IMG/VR virus record: IMGVR_UViG_3300045988_149331 | Span: 36,686 to 100,685 of that record | DNA length: 64,000 bases | Origin: a virus | Reading direction: 5' to 3' (one strand) | In this document: positions 3,487 to 61,235 of the stretch, piece after piece | Layout of the letters: each line of letters starts with the position of its first letter | Numbering within the stretch: position 1 is the stretch's first letter | Notes under the pieces: generated by a model | Databases searched by the model: none | What the model was told of the DNA's origin: nothing | Seen by the model: only the letters and a program-made list of their open reading frames with translations | Made by a program: the position numbers and the translations under genes

Positions 3487-4296
3487 CTACACCTCCACCG
3501 CGTCAAAGTCAATATCAAATTTCTTGTACACAATTCGCAACTCCGGTACGCCGTTAATTGGCTTCTTCTTTTCGTCAATACGAGCGTTCAACGGCCAGCG
3601 CTTGAGTATGATGTCGTGCGCCCGCTGCACGCGCTCCTGGCGTTCGTATACGTCTTGGAGACCGCCGCCCTGGTTGGCTTCCTTGTTCATCTTACTCTGG
3701 AGAAGGAACCGCACGAACCGCGCGTAGACGATTCCCAGGTACATGCATTTCAACGAATAGTCGATGTCGCATTTCAACTCCAACTTTTCGTCAAAGTCCA
3801 GTTCCAGCGTCCGTAGCCCCTTGAAGACGATCAAGTGTGGAATACCGCCGTACTTGAAGCGCGGGCTGACGTCGGTACAACTCCAGTCGAAGGCGCTCTT
3901 GCCCATCGTTCCATACTCAAAATCGGTTTCCATGACCTCGCGATCAAACTCCTCAAAGAACTCGCTGAGTTCTTCCGGCGTTTTCAACGACAGCCCACAC
4001 TTGGCTTCACCGTCGATCGAGTAGAAGAAGTTGGCGATGTCGTCATCCATCACCACCACCGGGTGGTTCTTGCGGAGGTAGGTGTTCTTGCAGAAATTTA
4101 CCACGTAGCTGTAGCCGCGGTTCGAGGCCGGCAGCACAATCAGCCGCTCACGGGCGTGACCCGCTTCGACGTATTTTTCAACGTCCTCCTTTTCGACCAC
4201 AATATTGTAGTCAACGCCGCCCTTTTCCAACAGTTTAGTCGTGACGCACTTGGGGCGGTTCTTGGACACGACGAAGAATTGACAGTTCATACTCAA
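3487..4296 (-). CDS. GT-A-like (DxD) glycosyltransferase-like protein, paralog of 21202-22017
   Basis: N-terminal beta-strand FFVVSKNRP, DxD motif VVMDDDI, C-terminal KCDIDYSL..NQGGG..Y segment alignable with KEDFAVAC..NAAGG..Y of 21202-22017; ATGA overlap with upstream gene. Confidence 0.35.
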   Translation of the reverse strand: MSMNCQFFVVSKNRPKCVTTKLLEKGGVDYNIVVEKEDVEKYVEAGHARERLIVLPASNRGYSYVVNFCKNTYLRKNHPVVVMDDDIANFFYSIDGEAKCGLSLKTPEELSEFFEEFDREVMETDFEYGTMGKSAFDWSCTDVSPRFKYGGIPHLIVFKGLRTLELDFDEKLELKCDIDYSLKCMYLGIVYARFVRFLLQSKMNKEANQGGGLQDVYERQERVQRAHDIILKRWPLNARIDEKKKPINGVPELRIVYKKFDIDFDAVEV

Positions 4297-7490: not shown

Positions 7491-7993
7491 AATCTTACTC
7501 GTGATTCATGGCCGTGTTTAACGGCAATTCTACCGTTGTTAAGGTCGATTTCAACGCTCTTATCGGTAAGTGCAACAACTTTTCCAGGCTTATAACAAAA
7601 CCCATTTTCAGCGTTCCCCAACTTGACGATAACAGCTCTGTACTTGGTGAGTTCGGAAAAGTCTTTGATCTTGATGGCTTCTTCGTCAAACATCTTTTTC
7701 CAAAACCACTCGATATCAGGCCAGAGGCGAACCTCTTCGTTAACCCCTAACGACGCTGTAATCGGCGCACCATTGGGGAACAAATTCACCTCACACTTAC
7801 CATCACTGACGCGTGATAGCGTACCGATGTTATACCTCACCTTCCCCTTATCATCCTTCACGCGAACGATGACTCGTACAGGGTAAGGCGGTGTTACCTT
7901 CAACGCGCTGTTAGCAGCGATTGTTGTGCCGATATGCCAAATCTTCTCAGCCTTCGCTGCTGACACGGCCCAAATTATTTTTCTTTGGTCCAT
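7481..7993 (-). CDS. hypothetical protein, two tandem SH3/Tudor-like beta-barrel repeats
   Basis: Two internal repeats of pattern V.V......G..Y..G.v....d...E..L..G.......e.vRLW. Confidence 0.5.
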   Translation of the reverse strand: MDQRKIIWAVSAAKAEKIWHIGTTIAANSALKVTPPYPVRVIVRVKDDKGKVRYNIGTLSRVSDGKCEVNLFPNGAPITASLGVNEEVRLWPDIEWFWKKMFDEEAIKIKDFSELTKYRAVIVKLGNAENGFCYKPGKVVALTDKSVEIDLNNGRIAVKHGHESRVRLWE

Positions 7994-8165
7994 CTTCCTT
8001 TAATTCTTTTACCGCCGCAGCCGTAGCGTCGGCGATGTATTTTAGTACATCGCCTAACGCAGCGGCGTTGTTGGCGTTCCATTCGCGGATAAACCGATCT
8101 TCGTACTGAGTAACGGTGGGGAATGGCGACGGCAAAAAGTGGGTATGTTTGGCGTTGTAAGGCAT
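7947..8165 (-). CDS. hypothetical small protein
   Basis: 72-aa ORF whose ATG overlaps the ART gene stop (TAATG at 8163-8167); 3' end overlaps next gene by 47 nt, so uncertain. Confidence 0.3.
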   Translation of the reverse strand: MPYNAKHTHFLPSPFPTVTQYEDRFIREWNANNAAALGDVLKYIADATAAAVKELKEDGPKKNNLGRVSSEG

Positions 8166-19799: not shown

Positions 19800-20073
19800 A
19801 ACAATCCATCACTAAATTTCCCGCCAACTCCAACTCATACAACCGTTCAGCATCAGGCTTGGCGTAACAGAATATCAACTTTCCACCGCCCGCAGCCCGC
19901 AACGCTTTACGATACGTCGCCTTGATGCGGGCCAACTCTTCGCTTCGGTAAAAATCGTAGTCGCTTACACACAACTCCCACCACCGCTCTTGCCGCGACG
20001 CCCAGGCTATGACTCCTGGGCGTTCGGCTTCAATCCGCTTTACAGCAGCTAATAACAGCGCGTCGTGTTTCAT
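19798..20073 (-). CDS. hypothetical protein
   Basis: 91-aa ORF, 4-nt overlap with upstream gene. Confidence 0.45.
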   Translation of the reverse strand: MKHDALLLAAVKRIEAERPGVIAWASRQERWWELCVSDYDFYRSEELARIKATYRKALRAAGGGKLIFCYAKPDAERLYELELAGNLVMDC

Positions 20074-20657
20074 AACGTTTCGTCGATAGACTGCGCCAAC
20101 TCAGCCAACAGCCTTACGTGTACGCGCTCGTCGGCGATAATCTTGTTGAGGAGTTGAACCGCCAACGTAGAAGTAGTGGTCGGCGTAGGGTTGCCTGCTT
20201 GGATGCGCTGGATGAGTTTTTCGTACTCAGCGATGGTGTCCTGCTCGGCGCGAATATTGATCTGGATGGCTTCAGCCGCGCTTTCGGTCGTTATGTCCAC
20301 TTTGGCTGCCGAAAACACAGGCTTCGATACCGCGTGACCCAGATGGTGAATGAAGTCGCCTAATCGGTCGTAGTGCTTCATCTCGGTGAGGGCGATACCC
20401 AGGAACGTTTCGCCAATCTGATCGAAAAGCATCCGCTGTTGGGTGTATTGGATGATGGCGGTGAGTTCGGACGTTCCGGTAATTCCGGCGTAGACTTTGT
20501 AGAACCACTCGGCCGGAACGCCGTCGTCGGCTTTAGCCTTGGAGATGTCGGGATAGTCAATCGCGTGGTCGGCGTAACGCATCGACTCTACCAGCGCGTC
20601 GGCCATGATTTCGACGTTGTCCTGCTTGGCGGGTTGGTGTACGAGAATCGTTTTCAT
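20070..20657 (-). CDS. ferritin-fold di-metal carboxylate protein (Mn-catalase/CotJC-like)
   Basis: Four-helix pattern E...ExxH...E...ExxH: SELTAIIQYTQQ, LTEMKH, RAEQDTIAEYE, ADERVH. Confidence 0.5.
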   Translation of the reverse strand: MKTILVHQPAKQDNVEIMADALVESMRYADHAIDYPDISKAKADDGVPAEWFYKVYAGITGTSELTAIIQYTQQRMLFDQIGETFLGIALTEMKHYDRLGDFIHHLGHAVSKPVFSAAKVDITTESAAEAIQINIRAEQDTIAEYEKLIQRIQAGNPTPTTTSTLAVQLLNKIIADERVHVRLLAELAQSIDETL

Positions 20658-20659: not shown

Positions 20660-21205
20660 CTATTTGGTTTCAGGTTCTTGGCTCTTGACGGTCGATCCCC
20701 ATCCTGCTTCGCCGCGAGCGCTGGGCGTGAGTTCTTCGACGAGTGTAGGTTCAATCAACGGCGCAGGCACAATCACCAGCTGAGCAACGACGTCGCCCTT
20801 CTTGTACGCCTTACATTCGTACGACAGCTCCCGCATTTTGAAGTCGGCGATAGTCCCTAAGACGTTGGAGAACAACACCGCCAAACACCGCGACATACGC
20901 TGCCACAGCGTGGGCATGTGATAGATCTTTTTGTAGCGTACCAGCATCTCGCCACGGTACCCCGGGTCGATAATACCCGGCGCGTTACACATCACCAGGT
21001 CCATCTTCGACACGCGCGAGTTGGGGACCAGCAACCCGCTGTACCCTTTGGGAATTTCAACGGCGATTCCCGTCTGGTACTCGATGAAATCTTCGGTTTC
21101 GCGTACTCCAACGGCTACCAGGTCCAAGCCGTTATCCTCGCCATCGGCGTGGGCATACGCCGGCAACGTGGCGTTGGGGTTGAGTTTCTTGAATTTTACG
21201 TTCAT
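20660..21205 (-). CDS. dut: dUTP diphosphatase (trimeric dUTPase) with about 30-aa insertion
   Basis: Motifs DNGLDL, GIIDPGYRGE, GDVVAQLV, RGEAGWGST; insertion between motifs III and IV. Confidence 0.85.
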   Translation of the reverse strand: MNVKFKKLNPNATLPAYAHADGEDNGLDLVAVGVRETEDFIEYQTGIAVEIPKGYSGLLVPNSRVSKMDLVMCNAPGIIDPGYRGEMLVRYKKIYHMPTLWQRMSRCLAVLFSNVLGTIADFKMRELSYECKAYKKGDVVAQLVIVPAPLIEPTLVEELTPSARGEAGWGSTVKSQEPETK

Positions 21206-22017
21206 TTCTTGTATCCTTTTAAGTGTATTTTGACCTCGATCATCTCACGGTCCTTCATTTCACCACCCCAGTTGGTACACTTTTTGGTACGGAGGGTGAT
21301 GTACTCGGGGAACGCTTCTCTTAAACGTTGTGATTCGGCGTTGGAGTTCTCGATCGTACGATAAATCGAACAACCACCAGCGGCGTTGGCTCCCGTCATT
21401 TTGTCGAACGAATACTGATACGAGACGATATTATCCAACCCCGCGCGGCGTAATCCACACGCCACGGCGAAATCCTCCTTTATGGGCCAATCGCTGAACC
21501 TGACAGGCTGACTTAGATACTGGGCGATATTGAGGCCCCAAATGGAGAAGAACCGCCCGTTTATTTGTACGTCGTGTTCCTTGTCGCGGTTGAACGGACG
21601 GTATGAAAGCGCAGCCACGGCGTAGGTGTCTAACTGCTCAGCCACCCAGTCGAACATCATCTGGTAGATGTATTCCTGCGCCTCGACGGTGAAATTGTCG
21701 TTGTTTACGACCACAGGGGTCTTGGCATCGTCTAAACGCAACGAGAAAGACACGTTATCGTCTAAGAAAAAGACTCCTCCAAATCCCCTATCAACGGCCT
21801 CTACAACAATATAGTCCCGTATGTCCCCCACGCCGCGACACGCCGTACTGTATTCCTCGATACTGGCTACTTTTCCACCCCAGTTGCGCTGGTGAGCCGC
21901 CAACTCGCCGGGGTGACAGAATATGTGGACGCGCTTCAACGCTTCAGGCGTCAACCGTTGAAGAGTTTTTTGGCGGTCAACACGACCTCGTGTGAATAAG
22001 GCTATCAGAGTTTTCAT
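21202..22017 (-). CDS. GT-A-like (DxD) glycosyltransferase-like protein, paralog of 3487-4296
   Basis: LIALFTRGR, FFLDDNV DxD-like motif, KEDFAVAC..NAAGG..Y alignable with 3487-4296; ATGA overlap with dut. Confidence 0.35.
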   Translation of the reverse strand: MKTLIALFTRGRVDRQKTLQRLTPEALKRVHIFCHPGELAAHQRNWGGKVASIEEYSTACRGVGDIRDYIVVEAVDRGFGGVFFLDDNVSFSLRLDDAKTPVVVNNDNFTVEAQEYIYQMMFDWVAEQLDTYAVAALSYRPFNRDKEHDVQINGRFFSIWGLNIAQYLSQPVRFSDWPIKEDFAVACGLRRAGLDNIVSYQYSFDKMTGANAAGGCSIYRTIENSNAESQRLREAFPEYITLRTKKCTNWGGEMKDREMIEVKIHLKGYKK

Positions 22018-27296: not shown

Positions 27297-27587
27297 TTAT
27301 TTCTTGCCTTTGGCCTCGTCGAACACCTTGAACGAGTATGCGGGCTTGAAGGCGATGGACCTGTATCCACGGCATTCCACCTTCTCGCCCGTCAGGGGAT
27401 TGTACCCCGGGCGCGGAGCGGCCACCTTCTGAACGAATCGGCCAACGCCGCCGATAACGATGTCTTCACCTTTGTCCCTCACCTCTTCGGTAAGAATGCC
27501 TTCGAGAGCACGGACGAACTTAATCGCCTCGGCCTTGGTGCTGCCGGTACGCTCGGCGAGCGCCTTGTAAAGATCTTGCACTTTCAT
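27297..27587 (-). CDS. HU/IHF-family DNA-binding protein
   Basis: MKVQDLYKALAERTGSTKAEAIKFV...GGVGRFV...RPGYNPLTGEKVE...AFKP matches HU throughout. True start is the internal ATG 27587; the track ORF extends spuriously to 27803. Confidence 0.85.
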   Translation of the reverse strand: MKVQDLYKALAERTGSTKAEAIKFVRALEGILTEEVRDKGEDIVIGGVGRFVQKVAAPRPGYNPLTGEKVECRGYRSIAFKPAYSFKVFDEAKGKK

Positions 27588-27627
27588 TGTACGATAATTT
27601 TGATTGTTGATAAATATGGGGTTTTGA

Positions 27628-28107
27628 TTAAACCTTTGCTTTGACGACTTCGATGCCCAGTTCCACCAACTGGTCACGTATGGAATTCCACGCTGCGTCG
27701 CGGGCCGCTTCGTTGACCCACCACTCGGTGACGTTATCACCTTCGGCGGCTGACGTGTCGCGATTGAGGATGATGCCGAACTCATATCGCATTGAATCAT
27801 CATTCCAGCGCTCTACACGATCTATCGAACGCACATAGACCCACGGTACCATCGACTGACCAACCTCGATAAAAACGGCACTCAAACGCTTTTTCTTCGT
27901 GAGGTCTTCGGCGGCAGCCAGAAAATCCGTCAACGACATATCGTAATCAACGCCATCGTCGGCGTTACGTTCAGCGTCGTACGGCTTGGCCTTTATCGTG
28001 ACGGGTTCACCGCCAAAAAGCGGAAGCCCATCAGAGCCGCGTGGTATTTTGTGAGCCTTTGCGGGCTGTTCTTGTTCGTCAATTTTCGACGTGTGGATCT
28101 TTACCAT
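27628..28107 (-). CDS. hypothetical protein
   Basis: 159-aa co-directional ORF. Confidence 0.5.
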   Translation of the reverse strand: MVKIHTSKIDEQEQPAKAHKIPRGSDGLPLFGGEPVTIKAKPYDAERNADDGVDYDMSLTDFLAAAEDLTKKKRLSAVFIEVGQSMVPWVYVRSIDRVERWNDDSMRYEFGIILNRDTSAAEGDNVTEWWVNEAARDAAWNSIRDQLVELGIEVVKAKV

Positions 28108-49927: not shown

Positions 49928-49957
49928 AGCCGCGGGAAAATGATGGAAACGCAGGAA

Positions 49958-51229
49958 CTATTTCTTGCCGAGTTTGGCGCGGATCGAAGCCAGCGAGCGG
50001 GCAGCAGGGCTTTCCTTTTCAGGTTCCGGTTCGTCGTCGAGTTCAGGTTCCGGCTCAGGCTCGGCCTCCGGTTCCGGCTCCTCGAGACCGAGGGCCTCGC
50101 GGATAGCGGCGCGAATCTGATCGTCGGTCGTGGACTTGTAGACCTTCACCGTGTCGCCGAGACCGTTGTCGCGGATGAACGCCTTGAGTTCGGCGCGGTC
50201 CATGTCAGCCAGCGGATCGTCGTCAGCGGCTGCGGGCTCCGGCTCTGCGTCAGGCTCGTCGTCGAGTTCAGGTTCCTCCTCCACAGGCTCCGGTACGCGA
50301 ACGCCCGGACGGTTCTTCTTGGTGCGAACGGGCGGCACGTCGTCTTCCTCGTCAACGTCACGACGTTTGGCGGCTTTCTTGGTGACCTTCTTCTTGGGCT
50401 CGTCGTCGGACTCGGCGTACTGAGCGCGGACCTTCTCCACGATCTCCAGCCATTCGTCGTCGCTGAAGATGTCGATACCGTTGGCCTCGTCGAAATTCTG
50501 GAGACCCTCCAGCGCTTTCTCGAACATTTCCAGCGTGTACGTTCCGGCGACCTCCTCGATGGGCTTCAGTTTCATGAACTTTTCGATGGCCTCGTCGGTC
50601 AGGGCGCATGCCTTGGGCTTCTTGCCGAGCGACACATCGTAGTAGTTCTCGCCCTTCTTCTTGTTGGGGTTCTTGATGTACTTGACGAACAGCGGCAGAC
50701 CCTCGTCGGGATCGGTGAACGGATCAGTCTCGATGGGTTCGTCCTCGTCTTCAGTGATGGCCAGGCGGTTCAGCGCGTCACGAACCGACTTCTTGAACTC
50801 CCACAGTTTGGGTTCCATGCCGTCTTCCTTCACCTCAGCGGCGTAGCACAGCCACGTCAGCGAAGGCAGCAGGCTGTCGCGCTGTGCCGTAACAGCAGCC
50901 ACGGCGGCTTCCGAGCCATGCGTCTTGACGTAGGCTACATACTCCTGGACGATGTCCATTGCGGTCTTGGCGTGGAACACAGAGTCCAGTACCGTACCGC
51001 GGCGATCGTCGCCGGCGTCAGTCACGAACGGCAGCCAGTAGCACTTGCGTGGTACGTAGAAATTGTCGTGGCCGGGGTGAGCCGGGAAGATGCGAATCTT
51101 CATCAGCCGCCCGTCCTCCAGCTGAAGGAACTCGGCGTTGCCGTTGTTGAGCATCGAGTTGTCTTCGTCGATGCGGGCTTTGAGTTTCTTGATTGGCGTT
51201 GCTTTAAGCAACTTTCGAGCATCATTCAT
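49958..51229 (-). CDS. hypothetical protein with long acidic (E/P/D) C-terminal region; possible ssDNA-binding protein by position
   Basis: 423-aa ORF between the recombinase and polymerase genes; EPEPEAEPEPEPELDDEPEPE tail; function from position only. Confidence 0.45.
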   Translation of the reverse strand: MNDARKLLKATPIKKLKARIDEDNSMLNNGNAEFLQLEDGRLMKIRIFPAHPGHDNFYVPRKCYWLPFVTDAGDDRRGTVLDSVFHAKTAMDIVQEYVAYVKTHGSEAAVAAVTAQRDSLLPSLTWLCYAAEVKEDGMEPKLWEFKKSVRDALNRLAITEDEDEPIETDPFTDPDEGLPLFVKYIKNPNKKKGENYYDVSLGKKPKACALTDEAIEKFMKLKPIEEVAGTYTLEMFEKALEGLQNFDEANGIDIFSDDEWLEIVEKVRAQYAESDDEPKKKVTKKAAKRRDVDEEDDVPPVRTKKNRPGVRVPEPVEEEPELDDEPDAEPEPAAADDDPLADMDRAELKAFIRDNGLGDTVKVYKSTTDDQIRAAIREALGLEEPEPEAEPEPEPELDDEPEPEKESPAARSLASIRAKLGKK

Positions 51230-51993
51230 TTGTTTTTAATTTTATTATGATGAGTAATATGAAAGCCTTTTGGAATTTCTTCCCCTATTTTTATACGTTT
51301 TATCGACTCACCGTCGGTTATATAAACCCTGTTAGAATTAGAAGCACCGATTTTTCGTTTCGTTTCCTCAGACAACGGTTTTCTTTTTACGCCGCGAATA
51401 GAAGCACTTAAACGGCGTTTTGCTTCTTCAGACATTTTGCGTCTTAGTATCAATTTATCCTCGGGGTGTTCGATGTAGCGTTTTCTTTGCGCTTCCGACA
51501 TGCGGAGACGTGATTCAATACTATGTTTTAAGGTCCCATTTTTACGTTTACTTTCGATTGCTTTAGCAATAGATTCTTTGCTCCTTTTTCGTCCTTTCAT
51601 TGCCATTGATATTTTTCTCCGCGTTTCATCTGTAAGTCTTTTATTCTTGTGAAACGTAGAATTTTTAAGCCGAGATGATGGCAATTTTGACGGGTTTATA
51701 TCAGAAGAGCTTACATTTCCATCTGCAATATTGTATCCAAATTTATGGTCTTGTGTTTTGTATAGTTTTATATACACATATTCCCACATGTTCAAATCGT
51801 GAGTAGTCGTACAATATCTCAGAATCCGACGTTCAAAATTCTCGCGACCGTATTTAGCAATGGCCTTAATTATGAGAACGCCGCTACCGAGATAGTAGTT
51901 GTCCCAATATTCGCTTCCTAATGTGTGTTGGCCGACATACTTTTTACCGTTTACTTTATTTGTCGTAAGATATATAAATCCCTTGTATTTCAT
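51226..51993 (-). CDS. free-standing GIY-YIG homing endonuclease (Seg/I-TevI-like)
   Basis: GFIYLTTNKVNGKKYVGQH...GSG; repeated NUMOD-like basic helices; stop overlaps the next start (ATGA 51226-51229); visibly AT-rich versus flanks. Confidence 0.8.
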   Translation of the reverse strand: MKYKGFIYLTTNKVNGKKYVGQHTLGSEYWDNYYLGSGVLIIKAIAKYGRENFERRILRYCTTTHDLNMWEYVYIKLYKTQDHKFGYNIADGNVSSSDINPSKLPSSRLKNSTFHKNKRLTDETRRKISMAMKGRKRSKESIAKAIESKRKNGTLKHSIESRLRMSEAQRKRYIEHPEDKLILRRKMSEEAKRRLSASIRGVKRKPLSEETKRKIGASNSNRVYITDGESIKRIKIGEEIPKGFHITHHNKIKNK

Positions 51994-52029: not shown

Positions 52030-52566
52030 TCATTCGTCTTCGTCAGGAATCAGTTGGCGGCGTTTACGAACCTTCGCCACGGAATTGGCCTTGGCTTGAA
52101 GCAGGTGCTCTTCGATGTCGCCAGCGGGAATCGACAGCGACAACTTATCGAGTTTGGCCGACTTGTCCTTGGCCGAAAAGAGAAGCGAAGCCGCATAGTC
52201 GCGAGTCTTTTGAGCCTCATGCAGTTTCATTTTGTTAGCCTTGTAAAGCGGGTTCTTGACTACTGCGGTGTTTACCTCATCGACGGTGGGGGCTTTCTTG
52301 CGGTCTTCTTCGCTGTTGAGTTCAGCACGCACCTGTTCGCGGATCTTGGCTTCGAAGATATCGCAGTTCAGTTTGGTTTCAGCCAGCGAACGTTCGGCGT
52401 CGGCCAGCAACAACCCCAGACGGTTTACGATCACCGGGAAGGTGATAATTTCGCCAACGAGGTTCTCATAGTGAATCGTCAGCAGGTCATCGACGTTAAT
52501 TTCGTCGTCGAATTCTTCGAACTCGATCTCGTAGACGTTTTTGCCGATCAGCAGTTTCCGTTTCAT
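52030..52566 (-). CDS. hypothetical protein (weak UvsY-like recombination mediator resemblance)
   Basis: 178-aa helical ORF near the recombinase; resemblance is impressionistic. Confidence 0.4.
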   Translation of the reverse strand: MKRKLLIGKNVYEIEFEEFDDEINVDDLLTIHYENLVGEIITFPVIVNRLGLLLADAERSLAETKLNCDIFEAKIREQVRAELNSEEDRKKAPTVDEVNTAVVKNPLYKANKMKLHEAQKTRDYAASLLFSAKDKSAKLDKLSLSIPAGDIEEHLLQAKANSVAKVRKRRQLIPDEDE

Positions 52567-52929: not shown

Positions 52930-53589
52930 TTAAATGATATTTTTTAATAAATCGATGATATCATCCTCCGACGCGTACAGCGAATGCGACGTAGTGCAAA
53001 TACCCATCTCAATGCACGTATTTCGTAACGTTGAAACTGCCTTATAGTAGTTATCCTTACAGTAGGGCAGCAAGTTTAACGGCCATGAACGGTTGCCGAT
53101 AGCCAATTCGCGGTTCAAAAAGTACAGCAGCGCCATCCAGTCTGCTACTTTCACAATAGCGTGCATCACGTCGTAGAACTTATCCTCTTTGGAGAACATT
53201 TTGACCACTTCGGATTCCTCGCCAAACTCTTCCGTCAACTGGTGGTTAACGAACTTATCAAGCACGTTTCGGATTTCGCCGCCGTTGTAGTTGTTGTACT
53301 TGAGTTCGTGGGTGATATCGCGGCGCAGAATGGCTTCGTCGAAGTCGTGCATCAACGCCAGTTTCAGCGTCTGGTATTTGAATAACCACACTTCGGCGCG
53401 TTGTGTGTCAGACGGCCACAAATATTCCAAGAGGCTCATCGCGAAGACCGAAACCTTAAACGAATGTTGTGACACGCTTTCCTGCTGGTGGCGGTCGTAT
53501 TCCAACCACTGCTTGATGTTATCCAACCGCGCCAAATAGTCACGGTTGAATAGCTTTATCAAATCTCCTTTGTTTCCTTTGTTTTCCAT
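52930..53589 (-). CDS. HD-domain 5'-deoxynucleotidase-like hydrolase (YfbR-like)
   Basis: ESVSQHSFKVSVFA ... LALMHDFDEAILRDI (H..HD..E) pattern. Start set to ATG 53589, which is preceded by GTAAAAC. Confidence 0.6.
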   Translation of the reverse strand: MENKGNKGDLIKLFNRDYLARLDNIKQWLEYDRHQQESVSQHSFKVSVFAMSLLEYLWPSDTQRAEVWLFKYQTLKLALMHDFDEAILRRDITHELKYNNYNGGEIRNVLDKFVNHQLTEEFGEESEVVKMFSKEDKFYDVMHAIVKVADWMALLYFLNRELAIGNRSWPLNLLPYCKDNYYKAVSTLRNTCIEMGICTTSHSLYASEDDIIDLLKNII

Positions 53590-53603
53590 ACGATTTTGTT
53601 TTA

Positions 53604-56447
53604 CTACTGTAGTATTTCTAACCTTGTAGATGGACACGACTGGATGACCTTCTTGCCCGCAAAGAAATTAACGCGTCCTGATACAGCCACAACTCGGTTC
53701 AGCAGCGTCGCTTCAGTTTCAGGCTGGTATTTCCAAAAGTCAGCCCACAACGTGACTTGAACGATAAGGCTGTTGATTTCTACCTGCAATACGCCATACG
53801 TATCACCCCGCTTGGTTTGACGTTCGAATACGTTGTTAACACGCCCCACGATACACACCTCGTCACCTTCGTTTTTCTTCTCGAATTCAGGCGCAGTAAC
53901 GTACAGCCGAACCATCCGTTTTCCGAGACCATACTCGTTCAACATACGCGTGTAGTCCACTTCGCCATACCCGGTTATTTCGCGCTGTTTGAAGACCCAC
54001 CAAGCGTTAGTATGGGCATCGGGAGTAGCGAATTCTTCAGGCAGTTCTTCGCCCCGGCGTTCGAGATATTGTTTGACGATATCTAACCGTTGACGCGGGT
54101 TGCGTACTCCTTCTACAAGGTCGAACGCTCCGGCTGTTATCAACCGTAATACCACCGTGCGATTAACGCCCGTAGGGACTGACGTTATGAAGTCTTCGAA
54201 AGAAAACACCTCGCCGTGCTCAGCCTTCATTTGTTTGAGGAGCGTCAACGCCCGATCGCCGACGCCTTTAACCTTCCCCAGTGAGAAGAAGATACGATTG
54301 GTTTCAGGGTCGCAGGTAAACGTATCGCCCGAGAAATTGATATCCGGCGGACGCACCTCAATATCGACACCCGTCTTCTTCATTTCAACAAGCCGATACG
54401 GAATATCAGCCTCTTTGGAAGCGTACTGAAGCGACGTCGTCCAAAACTCCAACGGGTAGTTCACCTTAAACCACTGCGACCAGTACGACATCATGGTATA
54501 GGCCACGGCGTGAGAATTACACGTTACCACACCACCGTCAGTCAAAAACGTGTGTGACACGTTGCCGCTCACCTCCACGTCATAGACTTTTTCTTCACCT
54601 ACGCACTGAATATTGACGATTTCTTCCAATCGTGTTAACAATCCCTTTTCACCCATTCGGTGACGCGGTAGCGTTTCAAAGTGGATTTTCTTATGACACG
54701 AATTACAGAGCCACATCAGGTTGCTAACGTCATTATTCGCCCGATTCCCATCCATATGATGAGCCTCCATGCGTTTTCCCACTTTGCCGCACTTATCACA
54801 CGGGCATCCGGCGTGTTGGCGTTTGAAATTTTCAAAGTCAACGGTGGGATGATATTCTTGACGCTGGAATCCGCACTGACCCTTCGTAGGATAGTTTTGA
54901 GACCTACCACGTTGGAACGAATAATCCTTATTCGTTTCTTCGTATCCAGCCCAGATATACAATCGAGCACCAACTGCCAAACCGCTATCTATAGACATTT
55001 CACCCGCCGGTGTCGGGAAGCGGTGATTAGACGTACAGCGTATCTTTTCGCCGGAACGTACAGTGATTTCGTAAACCGGACGCACACCTTCAAAACGGAT
55101 GTCAACGATTTTATTACGAACCAACCTGCCTTCGTCGTTTAACGACCAGCACATTCCGTACCCTGAACGAATATACTTATCGCTTAACGATTCGTGAGAT
55201 AGCCATAAATCAGACGTGCGATTCTTTATTTCGTACATCTCTTCGATAGTGGGAGCATACGAACCGCGCGTAATACCTACGCGACGAATACGTTCCGAAC
55301 CTGCCAAGCACTTATTGAAGCCGTACGAAGCGAACGCCAGCATCTTCTCCCAGACTTCAGAGGCTTGTTCAACGGCTCGTTTTTCCGCAACTCCTTTTGA
55401 TTTTATCAAATTGGAATATCCGTTAACGAACTTTTCCTTGAATTGAGCTAAGGCTGTGTGATTCTTTTTCTTAATGTACGTACGACACTCGTCGGATTCG
55501 ATAGGCGTTAAACCTCCAACAACCATCGCTTTCATGATCTGCTCCTGGTAGGTGTACAACGAATAGGTATCACGAGTGATATCCTCCATCCCGGGGTCAA
55601 ACTTTGGCTTCTTGCGGCCGTTCTTTATATCGACAAACGTTTCGTGCGCCTTCACATCCATCGGGCCTGGTCGGAACAGTGCCGTCATAGCGATTAGGTC
55701 GTCGAGACTTTGAGGTTTAGCCTCGCGACAGTAATTCATCAGTCCCATGGCTCCAAACTGGAATACGTCTTCACACCACCCACGCTGGAAATAACGGTAA
55801 ACCTCTTCGTCGTTGAACGGAATGGCGTTAACGTCGATTTGCTCCCGACGGTTCTTGGCGATAAGTTTGATAATAGACGAGAACTTATCCAGCTGGTTAA
55901 GACCCAATATGTCCTCCTTCAAGAATCCGGACTTGTCAACATACTTGCCTTCCCACTCTGATACAAGCACATCGCCCATTTTCTTCATAGGCATCCACCC
56001 AAACAAGTCGATCGGGTTTCCATCCTCATCTTCCTGCGGTACAACAATGACCGCTGAGGGATGAATTGACGACGTTTTACACTGCGTAAGGGCGTATTTC
56101 GTCATATGGACCAACTCGGGGTGATCCTGCACAAAACGGAACAATTCACGCGATGTAGCTGCGTAGTTAAACAAGTCACCCCACGTGTACTCGATTTGGT
56201 CGTCGATGTCCTTGGTGAGTTTGTTCATTACCGCGAACGGCACGCCCATGACCTTGCCGAAATCCTTCAAACATGTCTTGAGTTTCATGCGGGTGTACGT
56301 ACCAACAGAGCACACATGATTGACGCCATAGCGTTTGGACATGTATTCCTTCACTGTATCCCGAAATGCAACAGGGAAATCGGCGTCCACGTCCGGCATG
56401 CTGTCCTGACGGGCAATTTCGACTTTTTCTATTTTTAGAATCTTCAT
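53604..56447 (-). CDS. dnaE: DNA polymerase III alpha (DnaE) C-terminal fragment: palm catalytic Asp pair onward, fingers, OB fold; contains an intein
   Basis: SMPDVDADF...TYTRMKLK..LKDFGKVMG collinear with E. coli SMPDFDVDF...TFGTMAAK..IRDVGRVLG; FRPGPMD; GFNK|SHAVAY split by intein. ATG 56447 overlaps the GIY-YIG stop (ATGA). Confidence 0.8.
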   Translation of the reverse strand: MKILKIEKVEIARQDSMPDVDADFPVAFRDTVKEYMSKRYGVNHVCSVGTYTRMKLKTCLKDFGKVMGVPFAVMNKLTKDIDDQIEYTWGDLFNYAATSRELFRFVQDHPELVHMTKYALTQCKTSSIHPSAVIVVPQEDEDGNPIDLFGWMPMKKMGDVLVSEWEGKYVDKSGFLKEDILGLNQLDKFSSIIKLIAKNRREQIDVNAIPFNDEEVYRYFQRGWCEDVFQFGAMGLMNYCREAKPQSLDDLIAMTALFRPGPMDVKAHETFVDIKNGRKKPKFDPGMEDITRDTYSLYTYQEQIMKAMVVGGLTPIESDECRTYIKKKNHTALAQFKEKFVNGYSNLIKSKGVAEKRAVEQASEVWEKMLAFASYGFNKCLAGSERIRRVGITRGSYAPTIEEMYEIKNRTSDLWLSHESLSDKYIRSGYGMCWSLNDEGRLVRNKIVDIRFEGVRPVYEITVRSGEKIRCTSNHRFPTPAGEMSIDSGLAVGARLYIWAGYEETNKDYSFQRGRSQNYPTKGQCGFQRQEYHPTVDFENFKRQHAGCPCDKCGKVGKRMEAHHMDGNRANNDVSNLMWLCNSCHKKIHFETLPRHRMGEKGLLTRLEEIVNIQCVGEEKVYDVEVSGNVSHTFLTDGGVVTCNSHAVAYTMMSYWSQWFKVNYPLEFWTTSLQYASKEADIPYRLVEMKKTGVDIEVRPPDINFSGDTFTCDPETNRIFFSLGKVKGVGDRALTLLKQMKAEHGEVFSFEDFITSVPTGVNRTVVLRLITAGAFDLVEGVRNPRQRLDIVKQYLERRGEELPEEFATPDAHTNAWWVFKQREITGYGEVDYTRMLNEYGLGKRMVRLYVTAPEFEKKNEGDEVCIVGRVNNVFERQTKRGDTYGVLQVEINSLIVQVTLWADFWKYQPETEATLLNRVVAVSGRVNFFAGKKVIQSCPSTRLEILQ
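54516..55310 (-). mobile_element. intein with HNH endonuclease domain in dnaE
   Basis: Begins CLAGSERI after GFNK, block B TSNH, HNH CDKCGK..HHMDGNRANN..LCNSCHKKIH, ends VVTCN followed by +1 Ser (SHAVAY); 265 aa. Confidence 0.8.
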
Positions 56448-57345
56448 TTCTTCCTTGGTTTCATTCCATACCAAAAACCGTCGGGGAGCGGACTGTCCTT
56501 CGGTATAACAGTATTTATTTCACCATTAGTTATTCTAACTTTGCCTTGCATAGGATTCGTGTATCCTTGTTCGTATTTTACGCGAAATTTTTCCCTTAAC
56601 GCCTGACGTTGTTCCGCCGACCAACGATTATTCCAATTCGGATTGTTCTCACCTGCATAGCGGCCCTTCATTTTGGCAGATAATTGCGCCTTTTGCTCCG
56701 GCGTCCAGTAATTACCGTAGTTTGGATTCTTTTCGCCGGCATATCGACCTTTTAAGGTTTGTGAAATTCTTTTCTTGTAATCGGTATTATCCAAAGTCAT
56801 TTGACGCTTTTGATGAATTCTTTTCATCACTTCCGGATGATCCTTGAATGTCTTTTTAAGCGAACGTGAAACTTTAGCCGCAACCTCTGGTATCAACACG
56901 GGCGAACCGCTTCCAAACTTATTCGCCGAACCCGGTAATATGTTGTAGCCAATCTTTTTATTGGCGGAATCGAATTTCTTGATGTAGAGCATCTCCCAGG
57001 CGTCGAGTTGTAGTTGAGTGTCGCAAATGCGAAGTGTTTCGCGCTTGAAGTTCTTTCGGCCGTAACGCTTAATCGCGTTCGTCAAAGATATGCCGCTACC
57101 TAAATAACCATCAAACTCATCCGTATCGCACCAGTGTTGGCCTATGTAAATTCTTCCATTAACGAGGTTTGTCGTTTTGTAAATTATACCTTGCATAAAG
57201 TCCGCAATTTATCAATATCAATGTCCAGATCTATATTTGACAAATCGCAGTCTATATCTATTTCCTCGCCATTACGAAGAGGAATTTTAGCGTTTTCGGG
57301 CAATCTAAACTTGCCATACCCCTCAATTTCCAAATCCCAAAATTT
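56394..57345 (-). mobile_element. 952-nt insertion splitting dnaE: candidate group I intron or free-standing HEG cassette
   Basis: Removing 56394-57345 joins ...FLNSNRVTVP to DVDADF..., gap-free against the E. coli RVSMPDFDVDF. The upstream exon would end in U (57346) and the insert would end in G (56394). Confidence 0.35.
56444..57196 (-). CDS. GIY-YIG homing endonuclease inside the dnaE interruption
   Basis: GIIYKTTNLVNGRIYIGQH...GSG; NUMOD3-like GEKNPNYG / GENNPNWN; C-terminal VRITNGEINTVI..PLPDGFWYG. Confidence 0.85.
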   Translation of the reverse strand: MQGIIYKTTNLVNGRIYIGQHWCDTDEFDGYLGSGISLTNAIKRYGRKNFKRETLRICDTQLQLDAWEMLYIKKFDSANKKIGYNILPGSANKFGSGSPVLIPEVAAKVSRSLKKTFKDHPEVMKRIHQKRQMTLDNTDYKKRISQTLKGRYAGEKNPNYGNYWTPEQKAQLSAKMKGRYAGENNPNWNNRWSAEQRQALREKFRVKYEQGYTNPMQGKVRITNGEINTVIPKDSPLPDGFWYGMKPRKK

Positions 57346-58887
57346 AGGAACCGTTACGCGATTAGAATTCAGAAATCGTTCGAACATTAAATCATATTTC
57401 AACGGGTCAACGTCCGTTATGTACAGGCAATATGCAATCAACGATCCGCACACTGAACCACGCCCCGACCCGGTCATGATACCCTGCTCGCGGCACCAGT
57501 TCATGATGTCCCAAAGGATCATGAAATAATCACATAGCCCGTTAGGAACGATAATGGCGCACTCCTTTTCGAGTTCATTCATATACTTATCCAGGTCATC
57601 GACCTTACCTACCAACCGCTCTTGAACGCCCTGTTCCAACTTTTCAAAGAAGGCGTCTTCAACCGTAGTTTTTACAAACTTGTATTTCGGAAGGTGACGA
57701 ATGCCCGTCGGTATCTCAAACTCAATAGTGTCCGTCAAAGTCGCTGTAAGGGTCATGCCATCAATTATCTTCTCGTAAAGGGGCGCGGCTACGTCCATCC
57801 ACTCTTCGTAGGCTAAAATCGTCTCTTTTGAGTTTTTGAAATACTGGGTCGAACTTTCGGCATTCACCACCCCAGCAACCTTATTCAGCAGGGCCTTCAG
57901 CGGAGCCTCTTCGCGATCAAGGTAATACGAGTCGTTGATGACGATAGGCAGCGTCTGGCAATAAGCCTTCATTTTCCGACAACGGCAGATGTAGGTGTCG
58001 ATAGCTTCCAGGTGAGCGCGGAATAACGCTTCGGATTCGAATTCGACGGTGTCGATCTGATAGTACACTTGATCGAACGCCGTGTGATACGCTTCCAGTA
58101 AAGCCTTGCACCGCTCGGCGTCGGACTTAAAGTAGTTCAGTTCGCTATCCGGCGGGATAACGCAGATCAGCCCGCGGCCAAGTTTATACAGTTCCTCGCT
58201 GGGGATGAAGCCTTGATAATCGACGTTTATGGCCTTATTCACCAACAGCAGGTTGCGCCACCCTTCAGGGCTGGTTACGTATAGTTTCAACGCGAAGGTT
58301 TCCTGTACGTCAGCCGCCTGGTCGTAGTTACACGCCACGGTCACAGTCTCGCCTATTATAGGCTTCAGCCCGTTATTCAAGCATGCGGTCTGAAAAGCCA
58401 GCGTTCCGGCCAAAGTGTTTCGGTCGCATATGCCGAGGGCCTTCATGCCGTTGAACTTGGCCTTGGCGGCCCATTCTTCGCAGTTTGACGAACCGTTCAA
58501 AAACTCATACTCGCTGTGAACGCCCAGATGAACGAACGGAACCAGTTCTTCGGCGGTTGCAGTGCCAAGGTACTTAAAATCACGGAACTCCGGGCGGAAC
58601 ACCACCGATTTATCCAACCGAAGATGATCTTTCTTGATGTTTGAATAGTAGAACTTACCGCCAAATTCGAACAGGATGTATTTTACAACCCCATCGTACA
58701 AGGCGTCGAACTCCGCCCCCGTCACCGCGAACGAGAAGCGTTGATCGATGATCTTGCCCTTATCGTCGGGGTGGAGGTACAAAAAGTCCCCCACGCCTTC
58801 GATAGCGATTATATTCAGTTCGTCGTCGCGCTTTTCTTCGATAGCCAGGTAGTTATCGTCGGCCCAGCGCCGTAATGCCTCAGTCAT
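57184..58887 (-). CDS. dnaE: DNA polymerase III alpha (DnaE) N-terminal fragment: PHP domain and start of palm
   Basis: PHP FVHLGVHSEYEFLNG...ALGICDRNTLAG; GRGSVCGSLIAYCLYITDVDPL..LMFERFLNSNRVTVP collinear with E. coli DnaE. The last 53 aa have no DnaE counterpart. Confidence 0.8.
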   Translation of the reverse strand: MTEALRRWADDNYLAIEEKRDDELNIIAIEGVGDFLYLHPDDKGKIIDQRFSFAVTGAEFDALYDGVVKYILFEFGGKFYYSNIKKDHLRLDKSVVFRPEFRDFKYLGTATAEELVPFVHLGVHSEYEFLNGSSNCEEWAAKAKFNGMKALGICDRNTLAGTLAFQTACLNNGLKPIIGETVTVACNYDQAADVQETFALKLYVTSPEGWRNLLLVNKAINVDYQGFIPSEELYKLGRGLICVIPPDSELNYFKSDAERCKALLEAYHTAFDQVYYQIDTVEFESEALFRAHLEAIDTYICRCRKMKAYCQTLPIVINDSYYLDREEAPLKALLNKVAGVVNAESSTQYFKNSKETILAYEEWMDVAAPLYEKIIDGMTLTATLTDTIEFEIPTGIRHLPKYKFVKTTVEDAFFEKLEQGVQERLVGKVDDLDKYMNELEKECAIIVPNGLCDYFMILWDIMNWCREQGIMTGSGRGSVCGSLIAYCLYITDVDPLKYDLMFERFLNSNRVTVPKFWDLEIEGYGKFRLPENAKIPLRNGEEIDIDCDLSNIDLDIDIDKLRTLCKV

Positions 58888-58888: not shown

Positions 58889-60115
58889 CTACAAAATTGT
58901 ATTCGGGTCCGCGTTAGATAACCTTGCCGCGAAGAAATTGCGCGCCAGCATTAGGTAGTCCCAACGCGCATCGACTTGATAGTAACTCGGCATATAATCG
59001 ATGATCGAGATACTGCTTTTCAACAGCTGATCGCGATCCTCCGGCAGGCACCCACCGCGATTACGCTTATAGGAGATGTACGCCTTCAACAACTGATACA
59101 CGGCCGAAAAATATATCGACTTTTCATGGACGTATCGCTGGAATCCAGCCTCGTCTTCTGGATCGCCACCGTCGGCGTTACGGTTGAGCAGACGGGTGAT
59201 CATCTCCTCCAGGAATACAGTTATTTCACGCAGGCGGTTTACCGGCACCTCGGACTCGAAATCAAAGTCCATCATGTACGAAATAGCTTCGTTGTAAAGC
59301 CCCATTTGTGCCGAATTAACAGGATATTCGGCGTTGGTGAAAAGGTCGAACATCTTCTCGGTAATGTCGTTCCATTCGTAGACGTGAAGCGACTGCGAGT
59401 TATGAGTCTGAACACCCAACTCAATGCCCAGACACAGCGACATTATCTCCGTCAGGAACGAAAACTGGAAGATGTTCGTAGGGAGACCCCAGTGAAGGTC
59501 ATTCGAACGATTCTGGACCGTGGTAACGAGTTTACCGTCGCGAATTTTCAACATCACCATATCGTTACACGGCAGGTCCTTGGTCTTCACACCGAGGTCG
59601 AACTTGGGGTTCCAAATCGACATCACCACCTGCCGCGTATCAGGATCAGCCGACAGTAAGCGTATCGCCTCTGCAACCTGATCCAGTCCAGTATCGGCCG
59701 ACTCGCTTTCCGAAGCAATTCCCCAGTGGCGCAGGCGCCACCCGTAGGGAGCATGAAACGTTTCGCCGTTGTCCGAAAAGTCAGCCATCCGGCTATTGAA
59801 GATCGTCAGGAACTCAACGTCCTTACGACCCACGGCGATCCACATCGCTTCAGCCAGCAGGAAGAACACGTTGATATTACGACCGTACCCGCCCACGCAG
59901 CGGCGATAGGGGTTGGTGATAACGGTCTTCACGTCCAGCAGTTCGCGCACCTTTCCGCCACGTGAATTACGCCACGGCAGTTTACGTATCGTATCGTTGA
60001 TGTACGGATACAACTGGGCAAATGATCTGCGGGGATCGGTGACGTAAGTCGTTTGACTTTCAAGTTCACTGACTGAAACGCCATCAACGGACTTGGATAT
60101 TGTTTCTTCTTTCAT
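58889..60115 (-). CDS. divergent thymidylate-synthase-fold enzyme (candidate dUMP hydroxymethylase or thymidylate synthase) with long C-terminal extension
   Basis: FHAPYGWRLRHW, DPDTRQVVMSIWN, catalytic LPCN, NRSNDLHWGLPTNIFQF align with ThyA YGxQWR, DPDSRRxIxSAWN, PCH, QRSxDxxLGxPFNI; 408 aa versus about 264 for ThyA. Confidence 0.65.
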   Translation of the reverse strand: MKEETISKSVDGVSVSELESQTTYVTDPRRSFAQLYPYINDTIRKLPWRNSRGGKVRELLDVKTVITNPYRRCVGGYGRNINVFFLLAEAMWIAVGRKDVEFLTIFNSRMADFSDNGETFHAPYGWRLRHWGIASESESADTGLDQVAEAIRLLSADPDTRQVVMSIWNPKFDLGVKTKDLPCNDMVMLKIRDGKLVTTVQNRSNDLHWGLPTNIFQFSFLTEIMSLCLGIELGVQTHNSQSLHVYEWNDITEKMFDLFTNAEYPVNSAQMGLYNEAISYMMDFDFESEVPVNRLREITVFLEEMITRLLNRNADGGDPEDEAGFQRYVHEKSIYFSAVYQLLKAYISYKRNRGGCLPEDRDQLLKSSISIIDYMPSYYQVDARWDYLMLARNFFAARLSNADPNTIL

Positions 60116-60218: not shown

Positions 60219-61235
60219 CTATTTCTTAGCGGCTTTAGCTTTCTTGGCTGCGGCGGCTTTAGCCAGCGCGGCGCGAGCAGCGGCCTTGGGATCGGCCTTC
60301 GGTTCCTCGGCCTTGGGAGCGGGGGCTTCCTTCTTGGCGGTAGCCTTCAGATCGGCTTCCATCTTCTCGCGATTCTTGCCAAGACGGCTGTCGGTAGTCG
60401 AGACGGCGGCCTTGATGTCGGGGAGGTAGGTCTGAACGATTTCCATCGCATGTTCCCACGTGATGCCCTTGAGCCACGGCAGAGCGTTCCACGTCATTTC
60501 GAAATCGACACCGTCGTCGGCGAGTTTGTCCTGAGCAGCCTGACTGCGGAACGTGTTCAGAACGACGTTGGTCGTGGCGAAATTGCCGTCCTTCGAGTAC
60601 ACGTTCTCGAACATGATGGCCACGGGTTTCGAGTTGGCGCCGCCGTACTTGATCGAGATACCCTGCGACACGGCCACGTACTGGAACTCCTTCTCGGGGA
60701 AGAACTTGACCAGAGCCTTGCGGAGCAGGTCCATGTGCTCCGGAACGGTCTGCGGCTTCAAGCGAGTACCGCGTTCGCTGTTACGAGGCTTCTTGGCCTT
60801 GGCGGGCTTGATCTCCTTGGCGCCTTTAGCGGGCTTGGGTTCCTTCGGTTCCTTGGGTGCGGCTTTGGGGGCAGCGGCTTTCTTCTTCGGCGCAGGGGCC
60901 GGAGCCTCTTCTTCAGGCTCGGCCTCCGGTTCCGGCTCCTCTTCAGGCTCGGGTTCTGCCTCAGCCTCCTCTTCGGCGGCCTCATCGGCGAGTTCATCGG
61001 CCTGCTGTTCAGCCGGAGTGGCTTCTGCCTCGGGGGCGGCAGCCTCCTCGCCTTCCAGTTCGGCGAACGAACCGACGATGTCGATCAGGTTATCGATGGT
61101 TTCGTCGTCCATCCCCGGGATGCCGGCGTCTTCGAGCCGCTTGAGGAGAATCTCCTTGGCGGCCTCTTCGGTCTTTGCCTCGATGCCAAGTTTCTTCAAG
61201 CGCTCGGCGTTTACTTTCGAAATTTTAGTTGCCAT
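60219..61235 (-). CDS. hypothetical protein with acidic E/P/A and basic K/A low-complexity regions
   Basis: 338-aa ORF; AEPEPEEEPEPEAEPEEE linker, C-terminal AAAAKKAKAAKK. Confidence 0.5.
   Translation of the reverse strand: MATKISKVNAERLKKLGIEAKTEEAAKEILLKRLEDAGIPGMDDETIDNLIDIVGSFAELEGEEAAAPEAEATPAEQQADELADEAAEEEAEAEPEPEEEPEPEAEPEEEAPAPAPKKKAAAPKAAPKEPKEPKPAKGAKEIKPAKAKKPRNSERGTRLKPQTVPEHMDLLRKALVKFFPEKEFQYVAVSQGISIKYGGANSKPVAIMFENVYSKDGNFATTNVVLNTFRSQAAQDKLADDGVDFEMTWNALPWLKGITWEHAMEIVQTYLPDIKAAVSTTDSRLGKNREKMEADLKATAKKEAPAPKAEEPKADPKAAARAALAKAAAAKKAKAAKK

Follow-up and report, generated by a model that had tools for sequence, protein, structure and literature searches.

A 64,000-nucleotide stretch of viral DNA (IMG/VR record IMGVR_UViG_3300045988_149331, positions 36,686 to 100,685; hereafter the window) carries on its minus strand a gene for a 408-residue protein with the fold of thymidylate synthase (TS). 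We assign this protein, with a probability of roughly 0.85, as a deoxyuridine monophosphate (dUMP) hydroxymethylase of the SPO1 gp29 type, which would produce 5-hydroxymethyl-dUMP (5-hmdUMP) rather than dTMP. A first-pass annotation made from the letters of the window had favored a dUMP hydroxymethylase over a plain TS, and homology, phylogeny and diagnostic residues support that preference; the gene context points the same way, although the pathway seen in it is incomplete. Its statement that the two enzymes cannot be told apart by eye was too pessimistic: an Asp three residues before the catalytic Cys (Cys-3) marks the hydroxymethylases, whereas the methyl-forming TS enzymes carry Leu at this position.

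The protein aligns with ThyA block by block as proposed, and every motif quoted for this likeness (HAPYGWRLRHWG, DPDTRQVVMSIWN, DLPCND and NRSNDLHWGLPTNIFQF) is present in the translation. Residues 85–247 match positions 54–212 of the 266-position Pfam profile PF00303 (thymidylate synthase; E = 8.5e-23), and residues 34–353 match PHROG phrog_5131, which is named 'thymidylate synthase' (E = 7e-73). The scores of the NCBIfam models nevertheless stay below those required of a ThyA equivalog: the best reaches 74 bits against a cutoff of 327, and TIGR03284 gives 60.7 against 108.35. Since the protein falls below every curated equivalog cutoff, it is placed in the TS fold but not in ThyA. Compared with Escherichia coli ThyA (264 aa), the 144 surplus residues are distributed as approximately 31 N-terminal, 6 internal and 107 C-terminal positions. 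The earlier figure of about 140 extra residues therefore holds for the total, and not as a wholly C-terminal addition.

The residues that bind the nucleotide and start catalysis are conserved. In the alignment with E. coli ThyA, Cys146 corresponds to Cys183, Glu58 to Glu89, Tyr94 to Tyr124, Arg166 to Arg203, Asp169 to Asp206, Asn177 to Asn214, His207 to His244 and Tyr209 to Tyr246; Arg21, Arg126 and Ser167 are also kept. The nucleotide-binding set (Arg52, Arg161, Arg203, Ser204, His244 and Tyr246) thus accompanies the catalytic Cys183, and, judged from the alignment, the residues required as far as the exocyclic methylene intermediate are intact. The catalytic Cys and the Asn at the position of E. 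coli Asn177, both reported in the first-pass annotation, are confirmed and are nearly or fully invariant among relatives (Table 1). In E. coli, Asn177 selects uracil, and an Asp at this position directs the enzyme to cytosine (PMC8670742, PMC13326640). The protein has Asn214 in place of the Asp that gives T4-type enzymes their cytosine specificity (position 177/179).

In contrast, the sealed site in which ThyA transfers hydride is dismantled. Leu143 is replaced by Asp180 and His147 by Asn184, the two folate-site tryptophans Trp80 and Trp83 are replaced by Met110 and Phe113, and the C-terminal lid is absent; Arg127 is also changed to Gln162. In TS, Leu143 keeps water out of the active site, and hydroxymethylases such as T4 gp42 (Asp145) and MilA have Asp or Glu here; the position is taken to correlate with a hydroxymethyl or a methyl product (PMC13326640, PMC6400193). 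Hydride transfer in TS takes place under a C-terminal tail that closes the active site, a tail that the T4 deoxycytidine monophosphate (dCMP) hydroxymethylase lacks (PMC6400193).

These replacements form a signature that was compared across a reference set of 11 lineage proteins, six TS enzymes and T4 gp42, with tail length counted after the H.Y motif. Cys-3 was read positionally because the loop before the Cys differs in length between proteins. Asp occupies it in the window protein, T4 gp42, every dUMP hydroxymethylase homolog and 148 of 148 aligned representatives of the family, and Leu in the six TS references. The residue after the Cys is Asn in all 11 lineage proteins, His in TS (Val once) and Thr in T4 gp42. 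Covariation in the references is perfect, with Asp at Cys-3, Asn at Cys+1 and a tail of 121–292 aa on one side, and Leu, His or Val and a tail of 54–57 aa on the other. The full combination (Asp, Asn and 121 or more tail residues) is found in 11/11 lineage proteins and 0/6 TS enzymes, and the Asp and Asn occur together in all 148 representatives. The motif xDxPCN and a long tail are common to SPO1 gp29 (383 aa), SP10 gp188, CP-51 gp100, PhiW-14 gp230 and PaMx11 gp51. The PCN in place of PCH and the extra length, which had been taken as signs of divergence, are thus real features, but they are the normal signature of the SPO1-type lineage and not those of an unusual enzyme.

Sequence comparison points to the same lineage. 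In blastp searches, the best matches among cultured phages are the enzymes of Bacillus 'hmU phages': SP10 gp188 (47% identity, E = 5e-57), SPO1 gp29 (47%, 7e-55) and CP-51 gp100 (38%, 1e-49). These are followed by PaMx11 gp51 (40%, 5e-43), the homolog from the ViI-like Ackermannviridae phage SW16-7 (33%, 3e-29), PhiW-14 gp230 (32%, 3e-26), E. coli ThyA (26%, 4e-15) and T4 gp42 (31%, 7e-6). SPO1 gp29 is the classical dUMP hydroxymethylase (record annotation; PMC8989533), the TS homologs of PhiW-14 and SP10 make 5-hmdUMP (PMC5889632), and the hypermodified thymidines of PaMx11, M6 and ViI derive from 5-hydroxymethyldeoxyuridine (5-hmdU). The TS-fold core, 47% identical to those of SPO1 and SP10, shares with this lineage the motifs xDxPCN and NRSND(L/I)xWG, the Asn at position 177 and an FSDDG-type motif that replaces the Trp80/Trp83 segment. 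The likeness extends to the long tail, a location near a replicative polymerase gene and the co-occurrence with aGPT-Pplase-family genes. The window protein differs from the SPO1 lineage in the sequence of the tail, in approximately 30 extra N-terminal residues, in its DnaE (Pol III alpha) partner and in its source, which is a metagenomic Gratiaviridae-like phage and not a Bacillus, Pseudomonas or Salmonella phage.

A neighbor-joining tree of a 203-column core alignment (19 references and 23 cluster representatives) gives the placement that the first-pass annotation had proposed as a check. A split with 98.5% bootstrap support separates the six canonical TS enzymes, the TS-like protein of Xanthomonas phage Mallos and T4 gp42 from the hydroxymethylase lineage. 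The window protein is nested in the latter, in a clade with the dUMP hydroxymethylase homologs of SPO1, SP10, PhiW-14, PaMx11 and the ViI-like phage. The family is large and unnamed. A word-indexed search returned 638 metagenomic proteins at E ≤ 1e-10, the closest of which are 99% identical and many of which are encoded on contigs of approximately 100 kb; an exhaustive search returned 566 clusters (50% identity) at E ≤ 1e-30. A megablast search with positions 52–64 kb of the window gave no match among 50,697 phage records, so the phage has no close relative in culture.

Several family members have features of their own. Three proteins of 685–751 aa (P0130, P0152 and P0244) contain an HNH-containing intein that splits the TS core near the catalytic Cys (query residue ~184). 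The Mallos homolog (locus L024, 1000–2816) has Asp at position 177, Asn at Cys-3 and Pro at Cys+1, and its gene is followed by genes for dCMP deaminase and dihydrofolate reductase (DHFR); it looks like a dCMP-directed methylase type rather than a TS. Brevibacterium phage LuckyBarnes (locus L021, 1126–2679) encodes a homolog of 517 aa with the hydroxymethylase signature and a 292-aa tail. A glycosyltransferase gene directly follows, which makes LuckyBarnes a further pairing of a TS homolog with a glycosyltransferase in a cultured phage.

The AlphaFold2 model of the protein, computed from an alignment of the 42-member close family, is confident (pLDDT 87.2, pTM 0.90). The replacement of the folate-binding C-terminus by a long extension, as noted in the first pass, is borne out: the TS tail is absent, and five helices are modeled in its place (residues 291–315, 322–332, 334–353, 358–379 and 386–396; pLDDT mostly above 90). 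The tail after the H.Y motif has 162 residues, compared with 157 in SPO1 gp29 and 55 in E. coli ThyA. Within the 42-member family it is conserved, with Tyr274, Phe286, Arg294, Ser333, Asp386 and Asn393 invariant. Among solved structures, the best Foldseek matches are entries of MilA, the cytidine monophosphate (CMP) 5-hydroxymethylase of mildiomycin biosynthesis (PDB 5b6d, 5jnh), with target-normalized TM scores of 0.78–0.80 over 348–370 columns; TS structures score 0.41–0.75. The alignment with MilA does not stop at the TS core but continues into the first part of the tail. A comparison with predicted viral structures ranked highest the long 'thymidylate synthases' from Maribacter phage Colly_1 (359 aa) and from Aeromonas phage phiA8-29 (381 aa).

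The proposed reaction would convert dUMP, 5,10-methylenetetrahydrofolate (CH2-THF) and water to 5-hmdUMP and tetrahydrofolate (THF), not dihydrofolate (DHF). The residues named here were observed in the protein, and the chemistry is modeled on that of TS and of T4 dCMP hydroxymethylase. In this scheme, Arg52, Arg161, Arg203 and Ser204 would hold dUMP while Asn214 reads the uracil face, and the Cys183 thiolate would add to C6. C5 would then attack the cofactor iminium, with proton transfers through Glu89 and Tyr124, and elimination of THF would leave an exocyclic methylene on C5. In TS, this methylene is reduced by hydride from THF in a sealed hydrophobic pocket. Since that pocket is missing here, with Asp180, Met110, Phe113 and Asn184 at the positions of Leu143, Trp80, Trp83 and His147 and no C-terminal lid, the methylene would instead take up water, probably positioned or activated by Asp180, to yield the hydroxymethyl group.

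A genuine but divergent TS that makes dTMP for phage replication is very improbable. Such an enzyme would agree with the fold, with the retained equivalents of Cys146, Glu58, Tyr94, Arg166, Asp169, Asn177, His207 and Tyr209, and with the label 'thymidylate synthase' that the family bears in public sources and in PHROGs; the substrates dUMP and CH2-THF are presumed to be those of ThyA. It does not agree with scores far under all ThyA equivalog cutoffs, with the loss of the hydride-transfer features (Leu143, Trp80, Trp83, His147 and the lid, replaced by a helical tail that is 107 aa longer) or with the bootstrap separation from TS. Gene context argues in the same direction. No DHFR gene was found in the window, the sampled flanks or 80 related loci, whereas sampled phage TS genes often adjoin one; this absence is in keeping with a release of THF instead of DHF. 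The gene co-occurs with an aGPT-Pplase-family gene, and genes of that family belong to thymidine-hypermodification clusters (PMC5889632). One tblastn match to the PK-3 DHFR (positions 52054–52209, plus strand; E = 0.004, 53 aa) lies antisense to a conserved coding strand and was rejected as spurious. Searches of the window, the sampled flanks and the related loci likewise gave no second TS and no ThyX; the ThyX motif 'RHR..S' turned up in short matches scattered over the two strands, which were dismissed, as the Pfam scans returned no match to the ThyX family.

A cytosine-nucleotide hydroxymethylase, acting on dCMP like T4 gp42 or on CMP like MilA, is just as improbable. MilA is the top PDB match by sequence (1e-19) as well as by fold, an Asp at the Leu143 position is common to the cytosine hydroxymethylases, and glycosyltransferases of the TAGT type, two of which are encoded in the window, are best known from the glycosylation of 5-hydroxymethylcytosine and would suit such an enzyme. 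T4 gp42 is also a TS-fold hydroxymethylase without the TS lid, and the same addition of water has been proposed for it. Substrate specificity argues against this reading. An Asp at the specificity position would confer preference for dCMP, and all members of the 42-member family have Asn there (Asn214 in the window protein), where T4 gp42 has Asp179; T4 gp42 further differs in the Thr after its Cys and in a tail of 28 aa. MilA uses a cytosine ribonucleotide, has Asp at both the 177 and the 143 positions, is 20–23% identical to the window protein and belongs to bacterial secondary metabolism. His244 and Tyr246 are kept, as in other TS-family references that use deoxynucleoside monophosphates (dNMPs), and the match to T4 gp42 is weak (7e-6) relative to the dUMP hydroxymethylase homologs (5e-57). 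The cultured marine phage PhiJL001 carries the same three types of gene (aGPT-like, TAGT-like glycosyltransferase and hydroxymethylase homolog) alongside a dCMP deaminase, a combination that implies a route through uracil. Slightly less improbable, though still very doubtful, is an enzyme that uses dUMP and ends at a different product at C5, be it 5-hydroxy-dUMP, in analogy to the recently discovered 5-hydroxy-dCMP synthases, or some other adduct formed from the methylene intermediate. Unexpected product chemistry was recently demonstrated for TS homologs (PMC13326640), the tail is specific to the subfamily, and the product of this metagenomic subfamily is a prediction. However, D169N, the mark of the 5-hydroxy-dCMP synthases of the RB69 gp48/DLP3 gp80 type (PMC13326640), is absent, as is the N177D change that accompanies it in these enzymes; Asp206 is invariant in the family. 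The enzymes of SPO1, SP10, PhiW-14 and PaMx11, phages with 5-hmdU-derived DNA, share the complete active-site signature of the window protein.

Several points weigh against a dUMP hydroxymethylase of the SPO1 type. This analysis established fold, residue signature, phylogenetic position, synteny and co-occurrence, and from these we infer the product, the role of Asp180 toward water, the roles of the neighboring genes and the final DNA modification. Identity to SPO1 gp29, the one biochemically characterized enzyme, is only 47% over approximately 195 core residues, and the tree contains few TS outgroups. The role of Asn184 at the His147 position is a correlation found here, which makes this residue a putative determinant. 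The tail has no sequence similarity to the SPO1-, PaMx11- or PhiW-14-type tails in hidden Markov model and hhalign comparisons (probability below 1%), so that the long tail is a positional hallmark of the lineage and only putatively homologous across subfamilies. The SPO1-type pathway is also incomplete as seen. No P-loop 5-hmdU DNA kinase related to SP10 gp186N or PaMx11 gp49 was recognized by blastp or tblastn in the window and approximately 170 related loci, a search in which BLAST is weak, as the two known kinases are themselves only 20% identical. Nor did the window, the sampled flanks and the related loci yield a dNMP kinase or a dCMP deaminase; window and flanks together cover all but approximately 20 kb of the ~100-kb genome.

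The gene is followed by genes for DnaE and the HD 5'-deoxynucleotidase (Table 1). The DnaE gene begins 1 nt past its stop codon and is adjacent in 78 of 80 related IMG/VR loci, and the HD gene is present in 66 of the 80; the order TS-like gene, DnaE, HD gene is kept in relatives down to 52% identity. In the window, DnaE is split into two open reading frames (ORFs) by a free-standing GIY-YIG homing-endonuclease gene (56444–57196), and its downstream part contains an HNH intein. Relatives with TS-like genes of 52–88% identity have an intact DnaE of 1173–1196 aa. The HD gene encodes a candidate dTMP/dNMP phosphatase in the takeover of the nucleotide pool; in PaMx11, too, an HD gene is found, directly behind the gene of the hydroxymethylase homolog. 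The dUTPase-like enzyme probably supplies dUMP and possibly removes dUTP or dTTP; a comparable role was shown for gp18 of phage 15599 (PMC13458397). The dUTPase, HD nucleotidase and aGPT-like genes, which the first-pass annotation had invoked as context, are thus real. A ferritin/rubrerythrin-like protein (20070–20657, minus strand) is encoded directly beside the dUTPase. Immediately upstream of the TS-like gene lies a gene for a low-complexity, Ala/Glu/Pro/Lys-rich protein of 338 aa with a Lys/Ala-rich C-terminus (60219–61235, minus strand), and a similar low-complexity gene is located at approximately 49940–51250, where one public assembly of the phage breaks.

Table 1. Positions of the TS-like gene, its diagnostic codons and the associated genes in the window.
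Feature	Position	Strand	Evidence and remarks
TS-fold enzyme gene, predicted dUMP hydroxymethylase (5-hmdUMP synthase)	58889..60115	-	408 aa, ATG start, stop codon included
Catalytic TS-fold core	59330..59974	-	Residues 48–262; aligns to all TS-family references; confident in AlphaFold2; Foldseek matches MilA and TS
C-terminal tail	58892..59329	-	Residues 263–408; five helices between 291 and 396; replaces TS C-terminal tail
Catalytic Cys183 codon (E. coli Cys146)	59567..59569	-	Invariant: 42/42 family members, 148/148 aligned representatives
Asp180 codon (E. coli Leu143, Cys-3)	59576..59578	-	Proposed water-admitting/activating residue of hydroxymethylases
Asn184 codon (E. coli His147), 'PCN' motif	59564..59566	-	Asn in 148/148 representatives and all 10 cultured-phage lineage members
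Asn214 codon (E. coli Asn177, uracil-selecting)	59474..59476	-	Asn in 42/42 close family members, 144/148 representatives
DnaE-type (Pol III alpha) replicative polymerase	53604..58887	-	Pfam; identical locus L014
YfbR-like HD 5'-deoxynucleotidase	52930..53637	-	PF12917 1.4e-13; directly after DnaE in relatives
dUTPase-like enzyme	20660..21205	-	PF00692 2.3e-9; phrog_135 dUTPase 2.9e-32
aGPT-Pplase-family protein, 336 aa	15629..16639	-	PF18723 3.9e-51 ('5-hmdU DNA kinase, helical domain')
TAGT-like (GT-A) glycosyltransferase 1	21202..22017	-	PF20691 1.1e-12; phrog_842 4.4e-27; PhiJL001 gp22 2e-14 (blastp)
TAGT-like glycosyltransferase 2	3487..4296	-	PF20691 5.3e-13; phrog_842 1.1e-16
Radical SAM/SPASM gene	4961-5920	-	PF04055/PF13186; near TAGT-like gene 2
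AAA-type ATPase, Walker-A protein	1694-3451	-	Marginal AAA matches only

Candidate genes for the modification of DNA lie farther away in the window. On 24 of 27 large contigs, the aGPT-like gene accompanies the TS-like gene. Its presence had been noted correctly; the kinase name of its Pfam domain ('HMUDK_hel') is misleading, and its product was rejected as a 5-hmdU DNA kinase, since it lacks a Walker A motif, the domain spans the entire protein, and the match to SP10 gp186 covers only the non-kinase C-terminal half (residues 317–597; blastp, 3e-27). Lee et al. described gp186C as an aG/PT-PPlase fused to a kinase (PMC5889632). The lack of a Walker A motif and the alignment to this half of SP10 gp186, to PhiJL001 gp19 (6e-21) and to PaMx11 gp50 (1.5e-18) assign the protein to the gp50/gp186C type of the aGPT-Pplase family. 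This type is functionally uncharacterized and is distinct from the characterized Pplase2 (gp46) type.

Two TAGT-like glycosyltransferases complete the set. The first, also found on the contigs of close relatives, is a candidate DNA glycosyltransferase. The second is part of a block inside the structural module (1–7000, minus strand), which comprises a 793-aa protein that runs off the left edge, the ATPase, TAGT-like gene 2, a 226-aa ORF and the radical SAM/SPASM gene. The arrangement of TAGT-like gene 2, radical SAM gene and ATPase recurs in two relatives (loci L017 and L018). The 793-aa protein downstream of the ATPase, which is seen in relatives, gave no Pfam or PDB match, and neither the aGPT-like nor the TAGT-like proteins gave a useful sequence match in the PDB. 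It has been remarked, in general terms, that GT-A DNA glycosyltransferases are associated with TS homologs in metaviromes (bioRxiv 2023.12.21.572611). In L017, the homolog (5532–7532) of window positions 5920–6852 encodes 666 aa compared with the 310-aa ORF beside the radical SAM gene of the window and contains an intein-splicing domain and a DUF559 domain, a further mobile insertion that is absent from the window phage.

Together, these genes outline how the product of a dUMP hydroxymethylase might reach DNA. The dUTPase-like enzyme would feed dUMP to the pathway, and the HD 5'-deoxynucleotidase would help to deplete competing dNMPs and dTMP. Host or phage kinases would convert 5-hmdUMP to 5-hmdUTP, which the DnaE polymerase would insert into DNA instead of dTTP. 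The 5-hmdU in DNA would then probably be elaborated by the aGPT-Pplase-family protein, by the two TAGT-like glycosyltransferases, or by both.

The window derives from a gut-type phage of approximately 100 kb, which in its gene content corresponds to 'Gratiaviridae', a candidate family of phages of Bacteroides and Parabacteroides. The matching content comprises DnaG, DnaE, SF1/SF2 helicases, SbcCD, RecA and a ferritin/Dps-like protein, as well as an AAA ATPase and a glycosyltransferase between the portal and major capsid protein genes. The phage group likely infects Bacteroides. Benler et al. (PMC8008677) described a 'kinase + AAA ATPase + glycosyltransferase' block in Gratiaviridae, which the block at the left end of the window resembles, and tentatively tied it to capsule modification; a TS-like enzyme or DNA modification is not mentioned there for this family. 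With a probable dUMP hydroxymethylase, the phage probably carries a modified thymine in its DNA. A more specific and only tentative proposal, which we consider less likely to be correct than not, is that the group replaces thymidine with 5-hmdU and elaborates it by a new route that has no recognizable P-loop 5-hmdU DNA kinase, with an aGPT paralog of the gp50/M6 gp55/gp186C type and two TAGT-like enzymes, to a glycosylated (base-J-like) hydroxymethyluracil or a new hypermodification. If this proposal is true, the block of AAA ATPase and glycosyltransferase (with a kinase) would be machinery for DNA modification and not for capsule modification.

The enzyme class has been known since SPO1, and the finding extends known biology without changing it. 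What makes it of interest is the prediction for a family of gut phages not yet in culture, together with the combination of aGPT-like and TAGT-like genes where no P-loop 5-hmdU DNA kinase was recognized. A non-canonical thymine would be predicted across a family of abundant, uncultured ~100-kb phages, where such a modification bears on evasion of restriction and CRISPR, host-range prediction, the design of phage therapy and behavior in sequencing. The rule of Asp at Cys-3, Asn at Cys+1, Asn at position 177 and a long tail without the TS lid could re-annotate hundreds of proteins now called 'thymidylate synthase'.

Comparison of related contigs suggests recombination mosaicism between close relatives, because the best identities of the TS-like and aGPT-like genes fall on different contigs. 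IMGVR_UViG_3300045988_153922 has a TS-like gene 100% identical to that of the window and an aGPT-like gene only 83% identical, and IMGVR_UViG_3300045988_166718 has aGPT-like and TAGT genes 99% identical. The 199-kb record IMGVR_UViG_3300029572_000001 contains the TS-like, aGPT-like and TAGT-like genes twice each, approximately 100 kb apart, and is probably an assembled concatemer of a ~100-kb genome.

Mobile elements are frequent, with at least two inteins and two GIY-YIG genes (51226–51993 and the one within DnaE) in 64 kb. A 906-aa protein (22037–24757, minus strand) contains an intein with Hint and LAGLIDADG homing-endonuclease domains. Among the structural genes, a 584-aa protein (8165–9919, minus strand) has a C-terminal ADP-ribosyltransferase exoenzyme/toxin domain (PF03496, 2e-9) and is a possible injected effector. 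The gene at 27297–27803 (minus strand) encodes an HU-type DNA-binding protein that is extended at its N-terminus.

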